NCBI GenBank assembly: GCA_000092065.1
Contig: CP000599.1
Reading direction: 5' to 3' (one strand)
DNA from: Ostreococcus lucimarinus
Lineage: Eukaryota
DNA: 64,000 bases
In this document: in pieces, positions 3,891 to 27,328 of the stretch
Layout of the letters: every line of letters begins with the position of its first letter
Numbering within the stretch: the first letter of the stretch is position 1
The notes under the pieces: model-generated
Told to the model about the DNA's origin: nothing
Seen by the model: only the letters and a program-made list of their open reading frames with translations
Databases searched by the model: none
Made by a program: the position numbers and the translations under genes

Positions 3891-6800
3891 CTAGTACGGG
3901 ACGCATCCCGGCGACGCGCAGTAGCCCCAGCTGAGGACGTCCATGGTTTGGTGCACCTCGGCGGCTTGGTAGCCAACCTTTGCGAAGCCCTTGCTGCCCG
4001 TGGACGCGGTGAGACCGATGTAGGCGTTGCCGTCCGTGTCCAAAATCTTCGCCATGTCTCTGTCTTCCACGGCGACTTGGAAGACGTAGCGGTCCATGTC
4101 GTCGATGAAGACTTGAATCTCCCCGGGGAACTCCTTGATGATGTTGTAATTGATGTTCGAATCTTGCTTGGGATCGAACGCCGGTTGTTGAATGTCGAAG
4201 AAGCTTTGTCTGTCGGGAGACGTCGCCGTGCCCGTGTTTTCGAGTTGCGCTTCGGTGTCAGAGGTGATGCTGATGACGCGCGTCGCTTCGCCGTCGTCGG
4301 CGAAACCCGCCGTGCCGCTGACGACGGCTTGTCGCGAGCTGTCGAGAGTTTTGTCCCGGTTAATCTTCACCTTGACGTTCGCCTTGACGCGGCCGCCATA
4401 ACCGAATTCAAAACCGGTTCGCAGCTCGGTTTTGAACTTGGTGCTCGAGCCAACCAATTTACGTCTGTCGGTCGAGCCGTCGGTGTGCGTCGTCGTGATT
4501 TGCCCAGTGCCCGCCTTCTCCGTGGTGAACCCGCGAGTGTATCTAATCTTCACCGTGTGCGCTAAACCATCCGCCATCGTCGGCACGCTCGGCGTGCTTC
4601 CGAAGTGCATGCCTTCGCTGTCATCGCTGTGATCGGCTTTCAAGTCGGTCACCGAGCTCCCCCACGGTTGGTTGTCGTAAAACGGCGCCGTCGTCATGAA
4701 GACGCCCAGGTGATTGTCGTTATAGGACACGTACTCGGTGGCGTTAATCCACCAGTGTTGCTTTCCTTGCTTCGGATCACGACGCTCGACGTTGTAGAAG
4801 GTGTCGAATTCCACCGCGAGCGACTTCTTCAAGCCGTTGGTGCACATGTCGGGCGTGCCGTCGTAATCCGCCGAGTCCACTTGCGTGGATTCTCCGTATC
4901 CCAAACCGTCGCCCGGGCACCCGACGAAACCGCCACCGTCGGTCAAGGACCCGCTCGCACCGCACAACTTGTACCTTGTGCCGGAAATCGGTTGCGGATT
5001 GGACGCGTCGTCGAACGTGCACGCCCAGCCTGTGTTGCCGTGCACGCTGTCCACCGTTTCTTGACGATCGTCGTTAGAGATGACGAACGCAAAGCCGTCG
5101 GCGCCGTCGCAAATTTGATCCGCGCCGCCGCATTGCGTGGGGTTGGTGATTTGGAACTCAAAGTTGGTCTCGAAACCATCCCAGATGTGTACTTTGCGGT
5201 GCCACCACACGGCGCCGACGCGCTGCGAGGTGCGGAAATCGGCGCTCGACTTCCACGGAGATCCGAGGGCGGAGTTACCGTTCGTTCTCGCGAACGCTTC
5301 GGTCAGTCGCACGACGTACTTGGGCGACGCATCGTTATTTTTCACCACCGACGCATCGCCCGCAAAACGCAGGTTGTGCTGAATGCAGTTGTTGATCCAC
5401 GTCTTGTTCCCACCCCACGCCGAGCCCTCACGCGTTCCGGTAGGGTTGGAGTCGTCGACGAAGGAATCGTCGCACGCGAAGTTTGGAAAGTCAAACTCCA
5501 TGTAAAATCTCGCGCTGTATTCGCTCGCACCGACGGTTTGCGGGTAGCGGTTATCGCCCATGATACCGATCGTGAGTTGATCGCAATTCGGCGACGCGTC
5601 GTTGTGGATGTAGTGTCCGAGCGCTCGCGCGTACGCAAACGCTGACTTCGAGCTGTCGGTGGTGTACCCGCCGAGAACGGCTTGCTTCAATTCCCCGCTG
5701 CTCGCTTCACCCTCGTCCGGGCCGGCGCAGAGCACCAAGGATTCGCCGACTGAAAGCGCCCAGGGCACGGATTCGCGCACCGACGTGTGACCGTAAGACC
5801 CAGTCGTGGGTCGCGTCGTACCGACGGTGGTGTACAAATCGAGGTTGTCGTTCACGGTGTGCACGGCGATGCGGAAGTCGTAGTCGCCCATGTCCGGCTT
5901 CAAATAGTAGTACGCGTACTGTTGAGGATCGACGACGGAGGAGACACGGAAACCGCAGCACCCCGGATCGATTTCGCAATACTTGTGCGACCAAGTTTGG
6001 TAAAAGGTTTGCAGAGGGTGGCGCAAGTACGCCCCGGCGTTGTCGTCCGCGACGATGGTAGTAGTGTCGTCGTGGACCCCCGAGCCCCCGCCCCCGCCAT
6101 CGCCGAATCGCCCGCCCGCACACTTGAGCACCTTGACGTCAGTGCCGGAGTAAGCGTTGGCAAAAGTGTCGATCGAAACCACCGTCGCAGTGGTATCATC
6201 AGTGATGGCGGTCACGCGAGCGTCGACCGGCCCGTTGGCGTTGGCGTCGCGCACGATGTCTCCGAGTTGAAGCTCGGTCAAAAACTTGCTGCCGACCCCA
6301 GCGAGTGTGCCGGCGGAGTGGGTGAGGGTAAAGCCACCCGTTTGCGTGAGCGCCTTTGCGGGCCGATGGGAGTCACCCACGTTCGCCGGAACGCACTTGC
6401 CGTGGTTGTAGCAAATCGGCGGGTTCGCGTTGTCGTCCGTCATGTACCGCTCGCCTTCGGTGGAGATGTAATACCGACAGTTTTCAATGTCGGCGACGTG
6501 GAGTCGCCACTCGGAACCGACGTCGACGGTCTTATCATCCCACTTGACGTAGACGCCGATACCGGAACTCACGCCTGAATCTTGCAGTTCAACCCACGCG
6601 GTGTGGTAGGCGCCCGCGGCGCCGCCAGAGTTGGCGAAGTTTTTCCAGTACGTGGTGTACGAGTAGGTGTGGGGGGAAGCCGTGTTCGCGCCCGACGTGT
6701 GCACGAGTTGCACCGTCACGCCTCGAGGCCAGAGCGGAAGAAGTCGCGTCAAACCGCGGACGTGCAGCGTCGTGATCGTTGCCGTGCCGCTCCCATTCTC

Positions 6801-8228
6801 CTTCTTGACGAACTCGCGGTTCCCGAGCGTGAAGGGACGATCGATGGTGAGCTCGACGTCGGACTGAATCGAGTTGACCATTCTCGTCTGCCCGCACGCG
6901 GTGATGGTGTATCCCGTGCGCAACTGCGTCAAAAAACGCGTGTCGCCGTACGTGCCTTGGGAAGAGAGCGAACCGGGCGCGCTTGGTGCGGTACCGTCGA
7001 TGTCTTCGAAGAGTTCCTTGTTGTCCCAAGAGTTGGAGACGACGCGCTTGCCGTACGAACGAACGGTGCCGTAGCCCTTGGTGAGCATGGGGAACCATTC
7101 CCAGTGCGTCGCCTTGAGAAGAGGCTCGGAGAACGAGTTGTGTAACACCATGATGTACTCGGCGAACGTCGTCGTCGTGCCGATTTCTTTCACTCGAACC
7201 GTTTCCCAGTCGCCGTTGATTTGAACGCTCATCCAAGGCCCGGATGTGTGATACTTGGCGGCCCACGTGCTCGAGGCGCCCATCTGCGACTCGAAACGCG
7301 TACCGCGACCGTGAATGCGATGAGAACTCATCGTCGCACTTCCACTGGCGTCCGACAAGTGACCCGCGTCCTCGTACGGCGTTTCCGACGCGAGTTTGGT
7401 GTTTTCGGCGATGACGGCGGTACCGTGCACCGCGTTCAAGGTGTCTTGACTGTGGTACGTTTCAATCGTCCCCAGACCGACGTTTCGCTTACCGATGCGC
7501 GGCGGGCACGAGACGTAGCCCCAAGAACCCAAACCGGTGAGGAATCCGGTGATATTGTAATCGACGGTGAGCGACGTTTCGCTGGCGATGGCTGTGATGA
7601 CGCGGTAATCGACGACGTCGTTCGCCTTGTATACGACGATCCAGTAGCCAACCTTCAGCTCTTGCAAAAACTCCGTGTTGGTACCATCGATTGTCAACGC
7701 TTCTGTCGTCGCACTGTTCGGTCGCGCCGTCGTCGTGGAGCTCGCGGCGAGCGTGCCCGTGCCCGTTCGCGCGGCGACGCCGAACGCCACCTCCGAGCCC
7801 GCCGACACCGCCGCCGGCGACGGCGACGGCGCCAGCGTCATCGACGTATCGCTGTGCACCGCCAACACCTCATGCACAGCCGTGTTCGCGATGTCGTAAA
7901 ACTTCGCCCCCGATTTCGTCCCGCCGTGAAACTGCTGCGTGAATCGCGTGTTCACCCCCGTCACCGCCGCGCCCGAGGTCGAGTACCGCCCCTCCCCTCC
8001 CACGAGCGTCGGCACCCCGCTCACGAGCCCGCTCACGTGATCGCCCGCGTTCACGTCTCCGTACCCTCCCTGCGAGTGCGGATCGTGTCCGCACCATCCG
8101 CACGACGTGTCCGCGACGCACGCGCCGCAATTCGTGTAGTACTCGCACCCCGCGATCGCGCCCCGCGTCGCCGCCGCGATCGCCGCGATCGCCAGCGCGC
8201 CCGCGAGCGCTCGCGACGCGCGAACCAT
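3891..8228 (-). CDS. large secreted PSI-domain plus concanavalin A-like / L-type lectin multi-domain protein (1445 aa)
   Basis: N-terminal signal peptide (MVRASRALAGALAIAAIAAATRGAIAG) followed by a PSI-like Cys knot (CEYYTNCGACVADTSCGWCGHDP). Legume-lectin-like motifs occur twice: ADGFAFVISNDD, and C-terminally IGLTASTGSKGFAKVGYQAAEVHQTMDVLSWGY. One uninterrupted ORF. Confidence 0.7.
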   Translation of the reverse strand: MVRASRALAGALAIAAIAAATRGAIAGCEYYTNCGACVADTSCGWCGHDPHSQGGYGDVNAGDHVSGLVSGVPTLVGGEGRYSTSGAAVTGVNTRFTQQFHGGTKSGAKFYDIANTAVHEVLAVHSDTSMTLAPSPSPAAVSAGSEVAFGVAARTGTGTLAASSTTTARPNSATTEALTIDGTNTEFLQELKVGYWIVVYKANDVVDYRVITAIASETSLTVDYNITGFLTGLGSWGYVSCPPRIGKRNVGLGTIETYHSQDTLNAVHGTAVIAENTKLASETPYEDAGHLSDASGSATMSSHRIHGRGTRFESQMGASSTWAAKYHTSGPWMSVQINGDWETVRVKEIGTTTTFAEYIMVLHNSFSEPLLKATHWEWFPMLTKGYGTVRSYGKRVVSNSWDNKELFEDIDGTAPSAPGSLSSQGTYGDTRFLTQLRTGYTITACGQTRMVNSIQSDVELTIDRPFTLGNREFVKKENGSGTATITTLHVRGLTRLLPLWPRGVTVQLVHTSGANTASPHTYSYTTYWKNFANSGGAAGAYHTAWVELQDSGVSSGIGVYVKWDDKTVDVGSEWRLHVADIENCRYYISTEGERYMTDDNANPPICYNHGKCVPANVGDSHRPAKALTQTGGFTLTHSAGTLAGVGSKFLTELQLGDIVRDANANGPVDARVTAITDDTTATVVSIDTFANAYSGTDVKVLKCAGGRFGDGGGGGSGVHDDTTTIVADDNAGAYLRHPLQTFYQTWSHKYCEIDPGCCGFRVSSVVDPQQYAYYYLKPDMGDYDFRIAVHTVNDNLDLYTTVGTTRPTTGSYGHTSVRESVPWALSVGESLVLCAGPDEGEASSGELKQAVLGGYTTDSSKSAFAYARALGHYIHNDASPNCDQLTIGIMGDNRYPQTVGASEYSARFYMEFDFPNFACDDSFVDDSNPTGTREGSAWGGNKTWINNCIQHNLRFAGDASVVKNNDASPKYVVRLTEAFARTNGNSALGSPWKSSADFRTSQRVGAVWWHRKVHIWDGFETNFEFQITNPTQCGGADQICDGADGFAFVISNDDRQETVDSVHGNTGWACTFDDASNPQPISGTRYKLCGASGSLTDGGGFVGCPGDGLGYGESTQVDSADYDGTPDMCTNGLKKSLAVEFDTFYNVERRDPKQGKQHWWINATEYVSYNDNHLGVFMTTAPFYDNQPWGSSVTDLKADHSDDSEGMHFGSTPSVPTMADGLAHTVKIRYTRGFTTEKAGTGQITTTHTDGSTDRRKLVGSSTKFKTELRTGFEFGYGGRVKANVKVKINRDKTLDSSRQAVVSGTAGFADDGEATRVISITSDTEAQLENTGTATSPDRQSFFDIQQPAFDPKQDSNINYNIIKEFPGEIQVFIDDMDRYVFQVAVEDRDMAKILDTDGNAYIGLTASTGSKGFAKVGYQAAEVHQTMDVLSWGYCASPGCVPY

Positions 8229-22415: not shown

Positions 22416-22793
22416 TCACCGCGACGCGTCGCCGTCGCCGTCCGTCTTCGCCGCGCGTTCCGCCGCGCGTCCTCGCGCGCGAGCGAGCCACGCCGAATCC
22501 TTCCTCTCGTCCCCCCGCGCGCCCCTCGCGTCGCGCGCGCGCGCCGTCGGCGCCGTCGCCGTCGCCGTCGTCGCGCCCGCGCCCGCGCTCGCCGCCAATC
22601 TCTCCCCGCTTCCGCGCGTCGTCGTCGACGCGTCGATGAAAACGCCTCGCCCCGCCGTCGCCGCGTCAATCTCCCCCCCCCGCGAGCGCTGCGCCGCCCG
22701 CGCCCCCTCGAACCGCACCCGCATCGCCGCCAGCGCCTCCCGCGTCGCCGCGTCCGCGATCATCGTCGTCCCGCCGTCGTCGTCGTCGTCGTC

Positions 22794-22829
<36 letters not shown>

Positions 22830-23381
22830 GCGTTCAAACCTCGCCACGTCCGCCGCGCTCGCGACCGCGCGACACGTCGGACACGTCGGACGCGTCACCG
22901 CGCTCCCCCCCTCCCCCCCCCCTTTCGCCCACTTCAAAAAGCACGCGCCGTGAAACGCGTGCCAACACGCGTCCAACCGCGCGCGCGTCTCGCGCGTCGC
23001 CGCCTCGCGACAAATCGCGCACCGCCTCGCCGCGCGTCCCATCGCCCGCGCGCGCGCTCGAGCCGCGCCCAGCACCGCCACGAGATATCCCTCCGTCCGT
23101 TCGAACGCCTCGGCGTCGCGCGCGATCGCCGCCGCGAGCGCGCTCGCCGCGTCGTCGTCGTCCGCGCCTCTGGTGTGTGTAATCATAATCGTCGTCTCAC
23201 TGTTTGGCCATAGGTGTGGATTCGCAATCGTCACGACGACGTCGCACGACGCGTCGGCGTCGTCCCGGTCGTCGGCGCTCGTCGCGCGGTGCGCGACGAC
23301 GACGCGGTCGGTCGTTCGCGACACCGACGGCGCGACGCCGAGGTAGACGCGCGCGGCGTCGAGCTCGGCGTCGAGCGCCAT
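22416..23381 (-). CDS. RING-H2 (C3H2C3) zinc-finger protein, probable E3 ubiquitin ligase
   Basis: CAICREAATRETRARLDACWHAFHGACFLKWAKGGG...TCPTCR fits C-x2-C-x11-C-x-H-x2-H-x2-C-x19-C-x2-C. ATG (MALDAELD) is the reverse complement at 23379-23381. The upstream part of the ORF is spurious. Confidence 0.65.
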
Positions 23382-23580
23382 GGTGTGCGGCGTCGGCGGC
23401 GCGCGCGGGTGACATAGAGTGTTAGGGGTGCGCACTACGACGTTTGGTATCGTATATTGATCGATATTCGTCCTTCGACGCGCGTTCGCGCGCGCGTATC
23501 TGCGCTCGACTCGGCGTCGCGCAACACCTTCCCCCCGCGCGCGCGCGCGCGCGACGGCGCGACGCGACCGACGACGCGCG

Positions 23581-23612
<32 letters not shown>

Positions 23613-23656
23613 CGACGGGGCGCGACGGTCGCGGGACGCGCGCGATCGAGCGCGCG

Positions 23657-24940
23657 ATGGCGACGCGCGAAGGCGGCGCGAAGAAGAATCGCGGCGCGAG
23701 AATCGCGAAACCCTCGATCGACGCGACGATCGTCGGTGGCGCGTGCGTCGTCGCGCTCGCGGGACGCGCGCGCGCGGTGCTCGCGGGAGACGTCCCGTCG
23801 GGGGGCGGCTCGGCCGTGGACGGGTACTTCAACTCCGAGAGCACGCTGAAGAGCGCGGTGGACGCGTGCTGGAGCTCGTCGACGACGGTGAACGCGGCGT
23901 GCGCGGACGGCGCGGTCGGCATCGCGGATTGGAACGTCGGCGACGTGACGAGCATGCGTGACATGTTCTCCGAAAAGGAGGGCTTTAACGCCGACTTGAG
24001 TCGTTGGAACACGAAGTCGGTGACGACCATGAGTGCCATGTTCAACGGCGCGACGAGCTTCAACGGCGACATGCCGAACTGGAACGTCGAGAAGGTGACG
24101 CACATGACTCACATGTTCCGAGACGCGACGAGCTTCAACGGCGACATGCCGAACTGGAACGTCGAGGCGGTGACGAACATGGCTCAAGTGTTCTCCGGCG
24201 CGACGAGCTTCAACGGCGACATCTCGAACTGGAACCCGAAGGCGGTGACGGGCATGTATCGCACGTTCTACGGCGCGACGAGCTTCAACGGCGACATCTC
24301 GAACTGGAACGTCGAGGCGGTGAAGGACATGAGTCAAGTGTTCAACGGCGCGACGAGCTTCAACGGCGACATCTCGAACTGGAACGTCGAGGCGGTGACG
24401 AGCATGCGTGACATGTTCTACGGCGCGACGAACTTCAACGGCGACATCTCAAACTGGAACCCGAAGGCGGTGAAGGACATGAATCAAATGTTCCGAGACG
24501 CGACGAGCTTCAACGGCGACATCTCCGCGTGGAACATCCAAGCCGTTACGGACATGTCTAACATGTTCAACAACGCGCGGGCTTTCGCGCGAGACATCAC
24601 GGGCTGGAACGCGGCGGCGATCGCCGCCGCGCGCGACGCCACCAAAGTTTCCGGCATGTTCAAGAACGCCACGGCGTGGCGCGCGATCTACACCAACACG
24701 CAGACGTCTTACTTTTCGGCGAACGACGGCCCGCCGCATTTGTGGACCGCCGGCGCCGCCGCTCCCGGCGCCGGCGCCGCCGCTCCCGGCGCCTCCGTCG
24801 CAGACTTCCCCGAGTGGGGCGTCGCCCTCGTCGCCCTCTCGCTCGCGCTCTCCACGATCACGTCCATCGTCGTCATCGCGCGCGCGCTGTGCGCGCCCAA
24901 GATTCTCGTTCCCGCCGCGCGGTGGTCCGCGCGCGTCTGA
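23657..24940 (+). CDS. DUF285 (Mycoplasma-type) repeat protein with signal anchor and C-terminal TM helix; putative surface protein
   Basis: At least 10 tandem ~26-aa repeats of the type ATSFNGDISNWNVEAVTDMSQVF, typical of Pfam DUF285. N-terminal hydrophobic segment IVGGACVVALAGRA and C-terminal TM WGVALVALSLALSTITSIVVIA. Confidence 0.75.
   Translation: MATREGGAKKNRGARIAKPSIDATIVGGACVVALAGRARAVLAGDVPSGGGSAVDGYFNSESTLKSAVDACWSSSTTVNAACADGAVGIADWNVGDVTSMRDMFSEKEGFNADLSRWNTKSVTTMSAMFNGATSFNGDMPNWNVEKVTHMTHMFRDATSFNGDMPNWNVEAVTNMAQVFSGATSFNGDISNWNPKAVTGMYRTFYGATSFNGDISNWNVEAVKDMSQVFNGATSFNGDISNWNVEAVTSMRDMFYGATNFNGDISNWNPKAVKDMNQMFRDATSFNGDISAWNIQAVTDMSNMFNNARAFARDITGWNAAAIAAARDATKVSGMFKNATAWRAIYTNTQTSYFSANDGPPHLWTAGAAAPGAGAAAPGASVADFPEWGVALVALSLALSTITSIVVIARALCAPKILVPAARWSARV
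24040..24560. repeat. ~78-bp periodic tandem repeat at DNA level inside the DUF285 CDS
   Basis: gagcttcaacggcgacat[gc/ct]cgaactggaacgtcgaggcggtga[cg/ag]gacatg recurs about 7 times with high nucleotide identity. Confidence 0.8.
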
Positions 24941-25128
24941 GCGCGCCGTCGGCGCGACTTCGACGTCGACGCAACTTTTTATCCACGCAATCAACATCCA
25001 TGCACCGCATTAAACCGTCTTCGAACGCCGCGCGCTCGACGAACCGCGATCGCGGCGCCGACCCTCGACGCGGCGTTCGATACCGACGCCGCGTTCACGG
25101 AGCGCGCCAACGCGCACCTCTGGAACCT

Positions 25129-25368
25129 ATGAATGACGCGAATCGCGCATCAGATACCGCATTCACGCGCTCTAACGCGTACATCTCAACCCTGATCCGC
25201 GCGATAAATGACGCGAATCGCGCATCAGATACCGCATTCACGCGCTCTAACGCGTACATCTCAACCCTGATCCGCGCGATAAATGACGCGAATCGCGCAT
25301 CAGATACCGCATTCACGCGCTCTAACGCGTACATCTCAACCCTGATCCGCGCGATAAATGACGCGAAT
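25129..25368. repeat. 75-bp minisatellite, 3 copies
   Basis: Unit catcagataccgcattcacgcgctctaacgcgtacatctcaaccctgatccgcgcgataaatgacgcgaatcgcg repeated three times, between the DUF285 gene and the MiaB-like gene. It generates the spurious repeat ORF 25095..25334. Confidence 0.9.
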
Positions 25369-25498
25369 CCCTCGCGCCGCGCGCGGCCGCGGCGTCGGCG
25401 CGACGTCGCACTCGCGCGCGCGCTCGACGCCCGACCGCCGCTCTCGCGCGCGCGCGCCGAATCCGCGCCCTCGCCGAATCCGCGCGCGCTCGCGAGCG

Positions 25499-27328
25499 AT
25501 GGCGACGCCGCGCGCGGCGGCGGCGGCGGTGGCGGCGCGACCGTCGACGCCGCGCCGACGCGCGCGCGCGCGCGCGGGCGACGGGCGACACCTCGACGCG
25601 ACGGCGGACGCGGTGCGCGCGGCGGGCGTCGCGGCGCGGCGCGCGGCGCCGCGAACGGGACGCGCGGAGGACGGGGAGGAGGACGCGCGGGGGCGACGCG
25701 CGGTGTACGTGGAGACGTACGGGTGCCAGATGAACGTGAACGACTCGGAGGTGATGATGGCGGTGCTCGAGGGCGCGGGGTACGACGAGACGAAGGAGGT
25801 GAACGACGCGGACGTGATTCTGATCAACACGTGCGCGATTCGGGATAAGGCGGAGGCGAAAATTTGGCAGCGGTTGGCGTACTTTCGATCGCTGGGGAAC
25901 GGGAAGAAACGGAGCGAAAAGCCGGTGGTGGGCGTGCTGGGATGCATGGCGGAGAGGATCAAGGAGAAGTTGTTGGAGGCGGATAGGCTGGCGGACATCG
26001 TGGCGGGACCGGACGCGTATAGGGATTTGCCGAATCTCATCGACGCCGTCGTCGGGAATCCGGGAGGGAAGGCGATGAACGTGCAGTTGAGCGTGGAGGA
26101 GACGTACGCGGACATCATTCCCGTGCGCGAGGCGGGGTCGCACTCGGCTTTTGTCACCATCATGCGCGGGTGCGACAACGCGTGCGCGTTTTGCATCGTG
26201 CCGTACACGCGCGGACGCGAGCGCTCGCGCGATTTGGCGAGCATCATGTACGAGATTCGTCTTTTGAGCGAACAAGGGGTGAAAGAGGTCACTTTGCTCG
26301 GGCAAAACGTGAACTCGTACGCGGGAGAGCCCGCGAGCGCGACGACGACGGATTTCTTGAGCTCACTGCGAGGCGAATCCAAAGACCCGATCGCCGAGCT
26401 CGCGAACGCGTCGACGGAACGTTTGGCGAGCGCGAGCGGTAGCGCGTTCGTCGGCTACGCCGATGGCTTCGCGAGTCGGTACGATCCCGAGCGCAAGCGA
26501 GCGGGGACGATTCAATTCGCCGAGTTGCTCGATAAAGTCGCGAGCGTGGATCCCGAGATGCGCATTCGTTTCACGTCGCCGCACCCGAAGGATTTCCCCG
26601 ACGACGTCTTGCGAGTGATTCGCGATCGACCCAACGTGTCGAAGTGCTTGCACATGCCCGCGCAGAGCGGGTCGTCGGCTACCTTGGAGCGCATGGCGCG
26701 TGGGTACACGCGCGAGTCTTACTTTGCCCTCATCGATCGCGTCAAGGCGATGATTCCGGGGTGCGCCATCACCACGGATATCATCAGCGGCTTTTGCGGC
26801 GAGACCGAGGACGATCACGAGGACACCGTGAGTTTGATGAGCGCGATCGGATACGAACAAGCGTTCATGTTCGCTTACAGCGAACGCGAGGGCACGGCGG
26901 GGCAAAGACACCAAATCGACGACGTCCCCGAAGACGTGAAGCAGCGGCGTCTGCAGGAAGTCATCGACGCCTTTCGAGCGCGCGCGGCGGAGAAGCAACA
27001 GATGGAGATCGGTTCCACGCATTGCGTGTTGGTGGAGGGTCCGAGTAAGAAAAACTCCGACGAGTGGACGGGGAAGACGGACACATCGAAGTGGGTGGTG
27101 TTCGAAAAGAATGATGCCATCGGCAAGTACGCCGGCGACGAAGACGCGCCGACGAGCGGGTCGTACGGCGTCAAGCCTGGAGATTACGTCGCCGTTCGCG
27201 TCACTGGGTGCAGTACGGGGACGTTATTTGGTCAAGTTCTCGGTAAGACGAGTTTGGTAGAGTTTCAAAACTTGCACGGCGCGCAGTGGACGACGCCAAA
27301 GTCGAGCAACGGCGCGAGCGCGCGTTGA
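25499..27328 (+). CDS. MiaB/CDK5RAP1-family radical-SAM tRNA methylthiotransferase with organellar presequence
   Basis: MTTase N-domain (VYVETYGCQMNVNDSE), radical-SAM CxxxCxxC (IMRGCDNACAFCIVPYTRG) and a C-terminal TRAM domain. ATG at 25499 precedes an Ala/Arg-rich leader. Confidence 0.85.
   Translation: MATPRAAAAAVAARPSTPRRRARARAGDGRHLDATADAVRAAGVAARRAAPRTGRAEDGEEDARGRRAVYVETYGCQMNVNDSEVMMAVLEGAGYDETKEVNDADVILINTCAIRDKAEAKIWQRLAYFRSLGNGKKRSEKPVVGVLGCMAERIKEKLLEADRLADIVAGPDAYRDLPNLIDAVVGNPGGKAMNVQLSVEETYADIIPVREAGSHSAFVTIMRGCDNACAFCIVPYTRGRERSRDLASIMYEIRLLSEQGVKEVTLLGQNVNSYAGEPASATTTDFLSSLRGESKDPIAELANASTERLASASGSAFVGYADGFASRYDPERKRAGTIQFAELLDKVASVDPEMRIRFTSPHPKDFPDDVLRVIRDRPNVSKCLHMPAQSGSSATLERMARGYTRESYFALIDRVKAMIPGCAITTDIISGFCGETEDDHEDTVSLMSAIGYEQAFMFAYSEREGTAGQRHQIDDVPEDVKQRRLQEVIDAFRARAAEKQQMEIGSTHCVLVEGPSKKNSDEWTGKTDTSKWVVFEKNDAIGKYAGDEDAPTSGSYGVKPGDYVAVRVTGCSTGTLFGQVLGKTSLVEFQNLHGAQWTTPKSSNGASAR

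Follow-up and report, generated by a model that had tools for sequence, protein, structure and literature searches.

A tandem-repeat DUF285/PARCEL gene of Ostreococcus lucimarinus with length alleles, null haplotypes and unstable flanks

Why should a predicted surface protein of a picoalga be built of ten tandem repeats in one haplotype, of as few as six or at least fourteen in others, and be missing altogether from some of the haplotypes closest to it? The question is raised by a single-exon gene of the DUF285/PARCEL family in a 64,000-nucleotide stretch of Ostreococcus lucimarinus DNA (GenBank assembly GCA_000092065.1, contig CP000599.1), hereafter called the window, in which it lies between a divergent gene for a RING-finger protein and a gene for a MiaB-type methylthiotransferase. 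A preliminary description, made from the letters of the window, had taken the region for a hypervariable surface-antigen locus consisting of a DUF285 repeat protein and a minisatellite. The family, its period of 25 aa or 75 nt and its occurrence in Micromonas and Ostreococcus have been published (PMC2996958); what is new here is a population-level picture and a testable candidate locus for interaction with viruses, and we found no description in the literature of the allelic series, the null haplotypes, the fragile breakpoints or the captured capsid fragment reported below. In our judgement this is probably an intronless, lineage-specific Mamiellales gene that carries a recombining surface-type array between two unstable sequences and that has been recurrently lost or duplicated. 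What does the gene encode? How are its repeats kept alike and yet diversified? What removes the gene from some haplotypes? Are viruses involved?

The predicted protein and its repeat array

The product matches PF03382 (DUF285, in the leucine-rich repeat (LRR) clan) with 324.8 bits (E 2.2e-98, cut-off 25, three stretches), as the preliminary description had claimed, and TIGR02167 ("PARCEL repeat") with 122.7 bits (cut-off 30, six stretches). With NF045896 (Mbov_0838 family PARCEL surface lipoprotein) the score of 204.6 bits does not reach the cut-off of 500, the repeat part alone being aligned; neither a match to Pfam LRR_5 (PF13306) nor a sequence homologue in PDB was found at E ≤0.01. Orthologous open reading frames (ORFs) of independent contigs have the same start and stop. 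A conserved tryptophan recurs at aa 92, 117 ... 317 and marks ten units spaced by exactly 25 aa or 75 bp, units 1, 2 and 10 being degenerate caps. Thus the earlier count of at least ten copies is borne out, and the earlier estimate of about 26 aa or 78 bp per unit gives way to the canonical PARCEL period (PMC2996958). Coordinates of these and the other features are collected in Table 1.

Table 1. Features of the DUF285 locus and its surroundings (positions in the window).
Feature	Position	Strand	Basis or description
DUF285/PARCEL (BspA-like LRR) gene, predicted type-I membrane protein, single exon	23657-24940	+	uninterrupted ORF, 427 aa, first ATG at 23657
Putative N-terminal targeting segment, aa 20-44	23714-23788	+	basic n-region KKNRGARIAK, then hydrophobic core ATIVGGACVVALAG
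Ten head-to-tail 75-bp (25-aa) PARCEL units	23900-24649	+	W spacing of 25 aa; Tandem Repeats Finder (TRF) period 75, score 655
Seven canonical units (3-9), ATSFNGD[IM][SP]NWN[VP][EK]AVTxMxxxFxx	24050-24574	+	recombining core, variable in copy number
Ala/Gly/Pro stalk, 21-bp x 2.2 perfect repeat (AGAAAPG)	24748-24793	+	TRF
Predicted C-terminal transmembrane (TM) helix, aa 388-408, then short basic tail RALCAPKILVPAARWSARV	24818-24880	+	hydropathy
191-bp 3' flank travelling with the gene	24941-25131	+	97.5-98.4% identity in all gene-bearing contigs
75-bp minisatellite	25132-25369		TRF period 75, 3.2 copies, 100% identity
Structural hot spot 3' of GATCGATATTCGTCC, in the promoter region that the DUF285 and RING genes share	23459-23517		alternating (CG)n tract; 19-haplotype alignment
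RING-finger protein gene, divergent upstream neighbour	22416-23381	-	zf-RING_2 29.6 bits, zf-C3HC4 26.7 bits
MiaB/CDK5RAP1-type radical-SAM methylthiotransferase gene, downstream neighbour	25358-27328	+	Pfam UPF0004, Radical_SAM, TRAM

The layout of the protein can be read from its hydropathy and from an AlphaFold2 model built from 67 sequences. Near the N-terminus a hydrophobic stretch of 14 aa (aa 23-36) follows a basic one, and the model places a helix at 29-43, with low confidence (pLDDT); the whole segment is invariant across alleles. The preliminary description had named it a signal anchor. The basic-then-hydrophobic segment is indeed present, and it may be either a cleaved signal peptide or a signal anchor. 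The C-terminal TM helix had been recognised correctly: its mean Kyte-Doolittle hydropathy is 2.48 over 19 aa (389-407), it is modelled as a helix at 385-411, and it is nearly invariant across alleles. The 21-bp repeat of the stalk, by contrast with these two segments, is polymorphic, with a 7-aa indel, an AGSGG variant or, in contig L032, an extra copy. Over aa 90-320 the model has pLDDT >90 and forms a beta-bridge in every unit, at position 18 of the unit; its Foldseek matches are LRRs, though weak ones, and the predicted fold is an LRR solenoid resembling the solved BspA-like structures. The protein is therefore modelled as an LRR-type solenoid on an Ala/Gly/Pro stalk, with one TM anchor and a short basic tail. 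As in other ORFs that host PARCEL repeats, a membrane or surface protein is predicted, here from the N-terminal hydrophobic signal and the C-terminal TM helix, and the solenoid is presumably exposed at the cell surface.

Long ORFs overlap the repeat region, one antisense (23422-24337, minus strand, 227-300 aa) and one in an alternative frame (24004-24411, plus strand, 135 aa). Opposite-strand ORFs have been named as a common feature of PARCEL sequences (PMC2996958); those seen here are most likely meaningless in sequence of 65-70% GC.

How alike are the repeats? TRF scores are 655-748 for the coding array and 476 for the minisatellite, far beyond chance. DNA identity is 72-89% among the canonical units 3-9, with a mean of 81%, and 45-69% for the terminal units; the longest exact direct repeat in the array is 54 bp. 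The near-identity of the repeats that had been noted earlier is thus confined to the 5' 45-54 nt of each unit and does not describe the units as wholes. Among pairs of codons for conserved residues in the window array, 279 of 298 (94%) are identical, against 165 (55%) expected from local codon usage, which indicates that the units have been homogenised or recently duplicated and are not merely biased in their codons. The earlier suggestion of recent expansion or concerted evolution therefore stands.

The differences between units are gathered in codons 17-25. The ratio of non-synonymous to synonymous differences (pN/pS) among the units of the window array is 0.58 in codons 1-16 and 3.72 in codons 17-25, a comparison between paralogous units of one gene and not a formal test of positive selection. 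Codon 20 reads ACT, GCT, TAT, AGT, CGT, AAT and TCT in the seven canonical units: the third base is fixed as T while the first two vary, giving seven different amino acids. When the 40 distinct canonical units from all alleles (described below) are compared, positions 1, 2, 4, 6, 11, 12 and 23 are invariant and positions 18, 20, 21 and 24 are hypervariable, with entropies of 2.3-3.2 bits; the alternation of conserved hydrophobic and variable hydrophilic positions that characterises PARCEL repeats is evident. The invariant residues A1, T2, F4, G6, W11, N12 and F23 and the nearly invariant M19 would build the core of the solenoid. In the AlphaFold2 model the four hypervariable positions are in or next to the one beta-strand that each turn contains. 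The beta-strand face is the usual ligand-binding face of LRR proteins, and we infer that this protein, too, binds a ligand.

Length alleles, null haplotypes and the two flanking sequences

Does the array vary among individuals, as had been proposed from its repetitiveness? Alleles were read from assembled metagenome contigs reached by protein search, a metagenome scan and cluster look-ups. Nine ENA proteins of 327-395 aa share the same or nearly the same N- and C-termini with the window protein, and the flanks of their contigs are 97.5-99.4% identical to the window. Altogether the same locus in independent metagenomes yielded 16 complete ORFs and one partial ORF with from 6 to at least 14 units, comprising 54 distinct unit sequences, and the unit spacing is 25 aa in every allele examined. 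The ten-unit order of the window, 00-01-09-06-07-08-05-04-02-03, recurs in L028, L030 and L031, units 06 and 07 of the window allele being variants that differ by single residues. Elsewhere in this lineage the unit counts are 6, 6, 7, 8, 8, 8, 9 and 9; in more diverged lineages they are 6-8, 10 or, where a block has been duplicated internally, at least 14. Shorter alleles are in-register subsets of units, or contain recombinant or novel units. The novel units and the repeated recovery of one ten-unit order argue against simple collapse of repeats during assembly. In sixteen alleles the ORF is intact and the residues of the signal, cap, core and TM segment do not vary, while the flanks of the lineages differ by up to 5-9%. 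The predicted length polymorphism and hypervariability are thus supported, neither copy number nor sequence being uniform among the assembled contigs.

The locus is more dynamic than had been proposed: some haplotypes have lost the gene as a whole, others show duplication of a cassette, and viral DNA has been captured. With the exact MiaB-type product as an anchor, the window was compared with four long contigs (80-158 kb) and with several shorter ones. Two contigs of ~158 kb (L022 and L023) and L026 are without the stretch ~23495-25128, that is, the promoter, the gene and its 3' flank, apart from a ~10-nt remnant of this flank in L026. Identity of their flanks to the window is 99.1-99.7%, and their three junctions are all different; GTTCGCGTGCGAATCGCGC, GCGCAGATGAATGACGCG and GATACGCGCCAACGTTAGATACC are k-mers specific to junctions. 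In L021 (4626-5600) the array is truncated at its 5' side from the same left breakpoint, the 3' part being kept with frame-breaking internal deletions, and in L020 (4200-5700) the gene has several frameshifts next to an intact MiaB-type ORF of 1971 bp. The gene is carried by the deeper-diverged lineages L020, L032/L033 and L014/L015, and it is the haplotypes closest to the window that are without it. Because the gene-less haplotypes are thus nested within gene-bearing ones, their absences are best taken as recent deletions; the converse, that the gene-less state is ancestral within the species, was rejected on this nesting by flank identity, on the three junctions and on the one 5'-truncated haplotype.

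Cassette junctions were seen as well as losses. In L014 (2419-2425) and L015 (1469-1475), window position 25150, in the first minisatellite unit, is joined to 22733 in the RING gene, and the 5' two-thirds of the RING gene belong to the duplicated cassette; the two ends of the L014 contig share an identical 141 bp. In L018 (1-60), ~25055 is joined to ~23358 with ~7 nt of microhomology. Such head-to-tail junctions point to some haplotypes with the RING'-DUF285 cassette in tandem or with circular molecules. Simple trinucleotide and CG-rich repeats occur at 22763-22829, in a poly-Ala/Asp tract of the RING gene, and at 23538-23669, in the shared promoter or the 5' region of the DUF285 gene; the junction at 22733 adjoins the former.

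Where do these rearrangements begin and end? When 19 haplotypes were aligned from GATCGATATTCGTCC (window 23459) onwards, the following ~40 nt were found to differ in almost every lineage. The variants at this hot spot comprise two different microdeletions, an inversion, a viral insertion of ~190 bp (L014/L015), truncation of the gene at its 5' side and whole-gene deletions, and the left breakpoint of all large rearrangements lies here. At 23491-23510 the window reads CGCGCGTATCTGCGCTCGA, while most other haplotypes have the reverse complement TCGAGCGCAGATACGCGCG, a micro-inversion of 19-20 nt. That the inverted 12-18-mer at the deletion junctions is a templated insertion was rejected, as it has the common orientation and it is the window that is inverted.

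On the other side, the right ends of the deletions and the cassette junction of L014/L015 fall at or in the minisatellite. The preliminary description had placed an independent minisatellite of three 75-bp copies immediately downstream of the gene. There are 3.2 perfect copies, which begin 192 bp past the stop codon and so are not adjacent to it. Contigs spanning both flanks have 2, ~4, 4.2, 5.2 and ~6.3 copies, and this head-to-tail repeat, with a unit within the 10-100 bp range and a copy number varying among individuals, qualifies as a variable number of tandem repeats (VNTR) locus. Within each unit there are a TATA-like ATAAAT and an ATG from which a 20-codon ORF, MTRIAHQIPHSRALTRTSQP*, can be read, and the ATG of the last partial unit (25358) opens the MiaB-type ORF; a change in copy number may therefore add or remove upstream ORFs or promoter elements in front of the MiaB-type gene. 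No other copies were found within the window, and an RNA gene was rejected for want of an Rfam match at E ≤0.1. The claimed independence of the minisatellite from the gene may not be full: the 75-bp period and a weak similarity are shared, and both elements are jointly absent from sister species (see below). Compared in register with the coding unit, the minisatellite DNA scores 23, against 15.8 +/- 2.7 for dinucleotide shuffles, 7 of 300 of which reach it (p ~0.02). This similarity is marginal, the translated minisatellite gives no DUF285 match even at E ≤10, and we do not claim that the minisatellite is a decayed PARCEL unit.

These results can be drawn together in a probable mechanism. The identical first 45-54 nt of successive units permit in-register unequal recombination and gene conversion, which keep synonymous sites uniform and generate recombinant units and arrays that range in length from 6 units to at least 14, while amino-acid replacements accumulate at the exposed positions of the unit. 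The (CG)n tract ~150 bp upstream and the minisatellite 192 bp downstream bracket the gene as unstable sequences, and breaks in them have probably, on repeated occasions, removed the gene, truncated it or joined it head to tail, and in one lineage captured giant-virus DNA.

Captured viral DNA, neighbours and the origin of the locus

The insertion in L014 (745-935) and L015 (1-65), corresponding to window ~23476-23517 and not present in the window haplotype, is an AT-rich segment of ~190 bp with a GC content of 44% in a contig of 67%. It ends in ATGGCCGGTGGTCTCGTGCAACTCGTCGCCTATGGCGCCCAAGATGTCTACTTGACTGGTGAC, which translates to MAGGLVQLVAYGAQDVYLTGD. Neither exact nor fully degenerate searches of viral contigs matched this capsid start; the shorter motif QLVAYGAQDVYLTG is present in at least 120 contigs of IMG/VR, including many metagenome-assembled genomes (MAGs) of giant viruses. 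Over 149 nt, consisting of 86 nt of AT-rich upstream sequence and 63 nt of coding sequence (the first 21 codons), the insert is 89% identical (E 5.5e-51) to viral contig L057. The gene concerned on that contig has matches to Capsid_NCLDV (167 bits) and Capsid_N (148 bits). In L014 host sequence lies on both sides. Homology to a giant virus within host flanks and foreign composition, as found in L014/L015, mark the insert as an endogenous fragment of a prasinovirus-like capsid gene, situated exactly at the hot spot and in the orientation of the DUF285 gene. In-frame fusion of the capsid fragment to the DUF285 gene was rejected, since it is in another frame and meets a stop after 55 codons.

Relatives of the protein do occur in viruses. 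The distribution over Mollicutes, marine algae and giant viruses that the preliminary description had stated is documented (PMC2996958, PMC10720644), and 12 viral contigs were found to encode DUF285 relatives of 25-48% identity. The closest of them, on L001-L006 (41-48% identity; two are giant-virus MAGs), have a GC content of 23-33%. Set against a gene of 65-70% GC, such low values disfavour recent exchange.

How old is the gene at this place? In two sister lineages (L154-L158), whose MiaB-type proteins are 85% and 87% identical to that of the window, gene order is kept: sugar transporter, oxidoreductase, DUF2505, CFAP77, RING (-), MiaB (+) and DEAD helicase (-). Both lack the DUF285 gene and the minisatellite at the RING-MiaB locus, where a gap of only ~275-330 bp separates the two genes (intergenic ~6670-7000). 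The gene and the minisatellite are thus a lineage-specific insertion into a divergent promoter, absence of the gene being ancestral at the genus level. Within the window, tblastn recovers the gene itself and no paralogue; a homology search with the caps alone, among 5.8 billion proteins, returned fragments of the same locus only; and the nearest relatives outside the locus are marine Bacteroidota-type proteins, 43-53% identical over the repeats. The source of the insertion may have been either an intragenomic paralogue or horizontal transfer.

Synteny of the RING gene is retained in the sister species. The MiaB-type product (656 aa) was found exactly on 24 metagenome contigs. Its counterpart in Micromonas commoda has 72% identity to it and a Mantoniella transcript has 67%, which would place the organism with Micromonas-like Mamiellales that are common in the environment; other gene calls begin this ORF 47 codons downstream (609 aa). 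Exact-sequence look-ups of the window DUF285 protein and of the neighbouring DEAD-box helicase gave no match. In the sister loci a gene call for ribosomal protein L19 stands between the helicase and Skp1, where the call in the window species has no Pfam assignment. The window as a whole averages ~64% GC.

Comparisons, rival explanations and meaning

Several known systems resemble this locus in part. The PARCEL proteins of Micromonas sp. RCC299 and Ostreococcus (PMC2996958) share with it the hidden Markov model families, the 25-aa unit, the variable hydrophilic positions, membrane association and their occurrence in Mamiellales picoalgae, and the O. lucimarinus repeat DNA printed there (..ACGAGCTTCAAC..GACATGTCGAAC..) closely resembles the unit here. 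The gene, however, is a different one, standing next to a MiaB-type gene whose product is the one 72% identical to its M. commoda counterpart and having caps without close relatives beyond fragments of the same locus, and population copy-number alleles, gene loss and flanking fragile sites are described here and not in that work. As to the dyad symmetry of the repeat DNA, from which PARCEL takes its name, a repeat search found only one 12-nt palindrome in 23900-24660; the original criterion was one of statistical palindromes from MEME. Mollicutes PARCEL lipoproteins (LppQ/LppC; NF045896) have the same type of repeat and a predicted display on a cell without a conventional wall, but they are held by an N-terminal lipid where a C-terminal TM anchor is predicted here, and the present context is eukaryotic and GC-rich. 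The BspA-like LRR surface proteins of Bacteroidota (structure 4fs7), many of them substrates of type-IX secretion, come near it in sequence, many of the nearest relatives being named "BspA family leucine-rich repeat surface protein". These bacterial relatives are longer and end in Por_Secre_tail (PF18962) or other C-terminal domains, whereas signal, stalk and TM segment give the present protein a eukaryotic layout.

The DUF285 genes of Aureococcus anophagefferens and its virus Kratosvirus quantuckense (AaV) are duplicated, strain-specific and "in flux between host and virus" (10.1101/2024.10.30.620910; PMC10720644). The likeness lies in a gene presence that varies among strains and in viral DNA found at the locus in one lineage. 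There, though, the genes are of viral origin, low in GC and arranged in large arrays, while here there is a single host-like gene of high GC, and the viral piece is a fragment of a capsid gene and not a DUF285 gene. In yeast FLO/ALS adhesins and bacterial phase-variable surface proteins, in-frame intragenic tandem repeats recombine into length alleles. The repeats here are kept similar by concerted evolution as in these VNTR surface proteins, but theirs are mostly unstructured spacers, whereas each unit here would be a structural turn of a binding domain. A change in copy number would thereby change the size of the binding surface, as does the number of LRR cassettes in lamprey variable lymphocyte receptors.

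How far can the variation be trusted, and does it need selection? Most alleles come from short-read metagenome assemblies, which are able to collapse or mis-join tandem repeats. Assembly artefacts over a monomorphic locus could draw on the exact stretches of up to 54 bp that are common to the units, on the ending of nearly every short contig within the minisatellite, on the identical ends of L014, which are a typical outcome of MEGAHIT on repeats, and on frameshifts of L020 that are confined to the repeat gene. We nevertheless regard this explanation of the copy-number and presence/absence differences as very improbable. Unit sequences absent from the window (VTYMRDMFRG, KATDMTAMFNG, VTTMYSTFKG) cannot arise by collapse; the ten-unit order was recovered independently in three other contigs; recombinant unit 19 (P0007) joins units that share exactly only ~22 nt, less than the usual final k-mers; the gene-less state, with junctions resolved to the base, is seen in two contigs of ~158 kb and also in a short-read scaffold independent of them; and the upstream hot spot is non-repetitive and still varies among 19 contigs. 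The main rival accepts the variation and denies its significance: the gene would be a recent, dispensable passenger under relaxed constraint, subject to neutral length variation, decay and loss. Its absence from the sister species, its repeated deletion, the possible pseudogene copies in L020 and L021 and a pN about equal to pS between close alleles, on a handful of changes only, are in keeping with such drift. But the 16 intact alleles described above have kept their invariant residues over the divergence of their lineages, the replacements are non-random, falling at four positions of a unit whose core is invariant in 40 distinct units, and pN/pS is 0.58 in codons 1-16; we hold neutral passage to be unlikely.

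Two further proposals concern the function of the solenoid. A solenoid with a hypervariable beta-face and a single-pass membrane topology recalls an LRR-type sensor, like the receptor-like proteins of plants or the variable lymphocyte receptors of lampreys, and not a passive target of attachment; its diversity would then mirror the variable ligands that it recognises on viruses, bacteria or partners in mating or aggregation. The cytoplasmic tail is, however, of ~19 residues and has no signalling domain, no co-receptor is encoded nearby, and frequent null haplotypes fit a target that is better lost than a sensor that is needed, which makes a sensor improbable. Ice-binding faces are regular and conserved. 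The exposed face here is, on the contrary, the most variable part of the protein, and near-identical haplotypes differ in the presence or absence of the gene; an abiotic role of the solenoid, such as ice binding or another surface property, is accordingly hardly credible. In its favour are the regular solenoid fold and a preprint (10.1101/2022.11.01.514737) according to which DUF285 resembles antifreeze proteins in structure and is transcribed at higher levels in polar regions, in polar diatoms.

There remains a biotic antagonist, which we infer to have driven the diversity: the pattern is as expected of a dispensable surface molecule in a host-parasite conflict. In this sense the earlier label of a hypervariable surface-antigen locus is right as to hypervariability, while "surface antigen" is an analogy and the surface location a prediction. 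That the antagonist would be the prasinoviruses, for which the protein might be a site of attachment or which it might recognise, is the guess that we prefer, though a rather unlikely one. More doubtful still, and decidedly unlikely as a whole, is the full scenario in which the protein would be a prasinovirus attachment receptor, decoy or recognition determinant, with changes of the repeats, substitutions on the exposed face and deletions as moves of an arms race at a housekeeping locus, outside the "viral immunity" outlier chromosome, and with the captured capsid promoter conferring infection-responsive control in one lineage.

Several observations weigh against so adaptive a reading of the locus. 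Recurrent deletion, possible pseudogenes and lineage-specific presence would also fit a dispensable gene drifting under relaxed constraint, and the damage in L020 and L021 may be either genuine decay or a matter of consensus errors that affect the repeats alone. Differences between near-identical ten-unit alleles (in their N-cap, one synonymous against three non-synonymous changes) are too few to judge selection, and the high ratio in codons 17-25 is open to the reservation given with it. The captured viral DNA shows that the lineage encountered such viruses, not that the gene was involved, and as no viral homologue is closer than 48% identity, nothing ties the protein itself to prasinoviruses.

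The recombining, recurrently lost array that we consider probable has several consequences. To our knowledge, no function is known for the DUF285/PARCEL proteins of any eukaryote, and the host receptors of prasinoviruses and most determinants of resistance to them are still unidentified. The locus offers an easily typed candidate, for array length, exposed residues and presence differ among wild haplotypes that are otherwise 99.5% identical, and its defined breakpoints allow junction reads to be counted in ocean metagenomes against virus abundance. Should the variation prove neutral, the locus would remain of use for telling apart strains of an abundant picoalga. In either case it provides a natural example of a structural repeat domain evolving by unequal recombination and diversification, and of fragile flanks that make a eukaryotic gene behave as a gain/loss cassette, including the capture of viral DNA.

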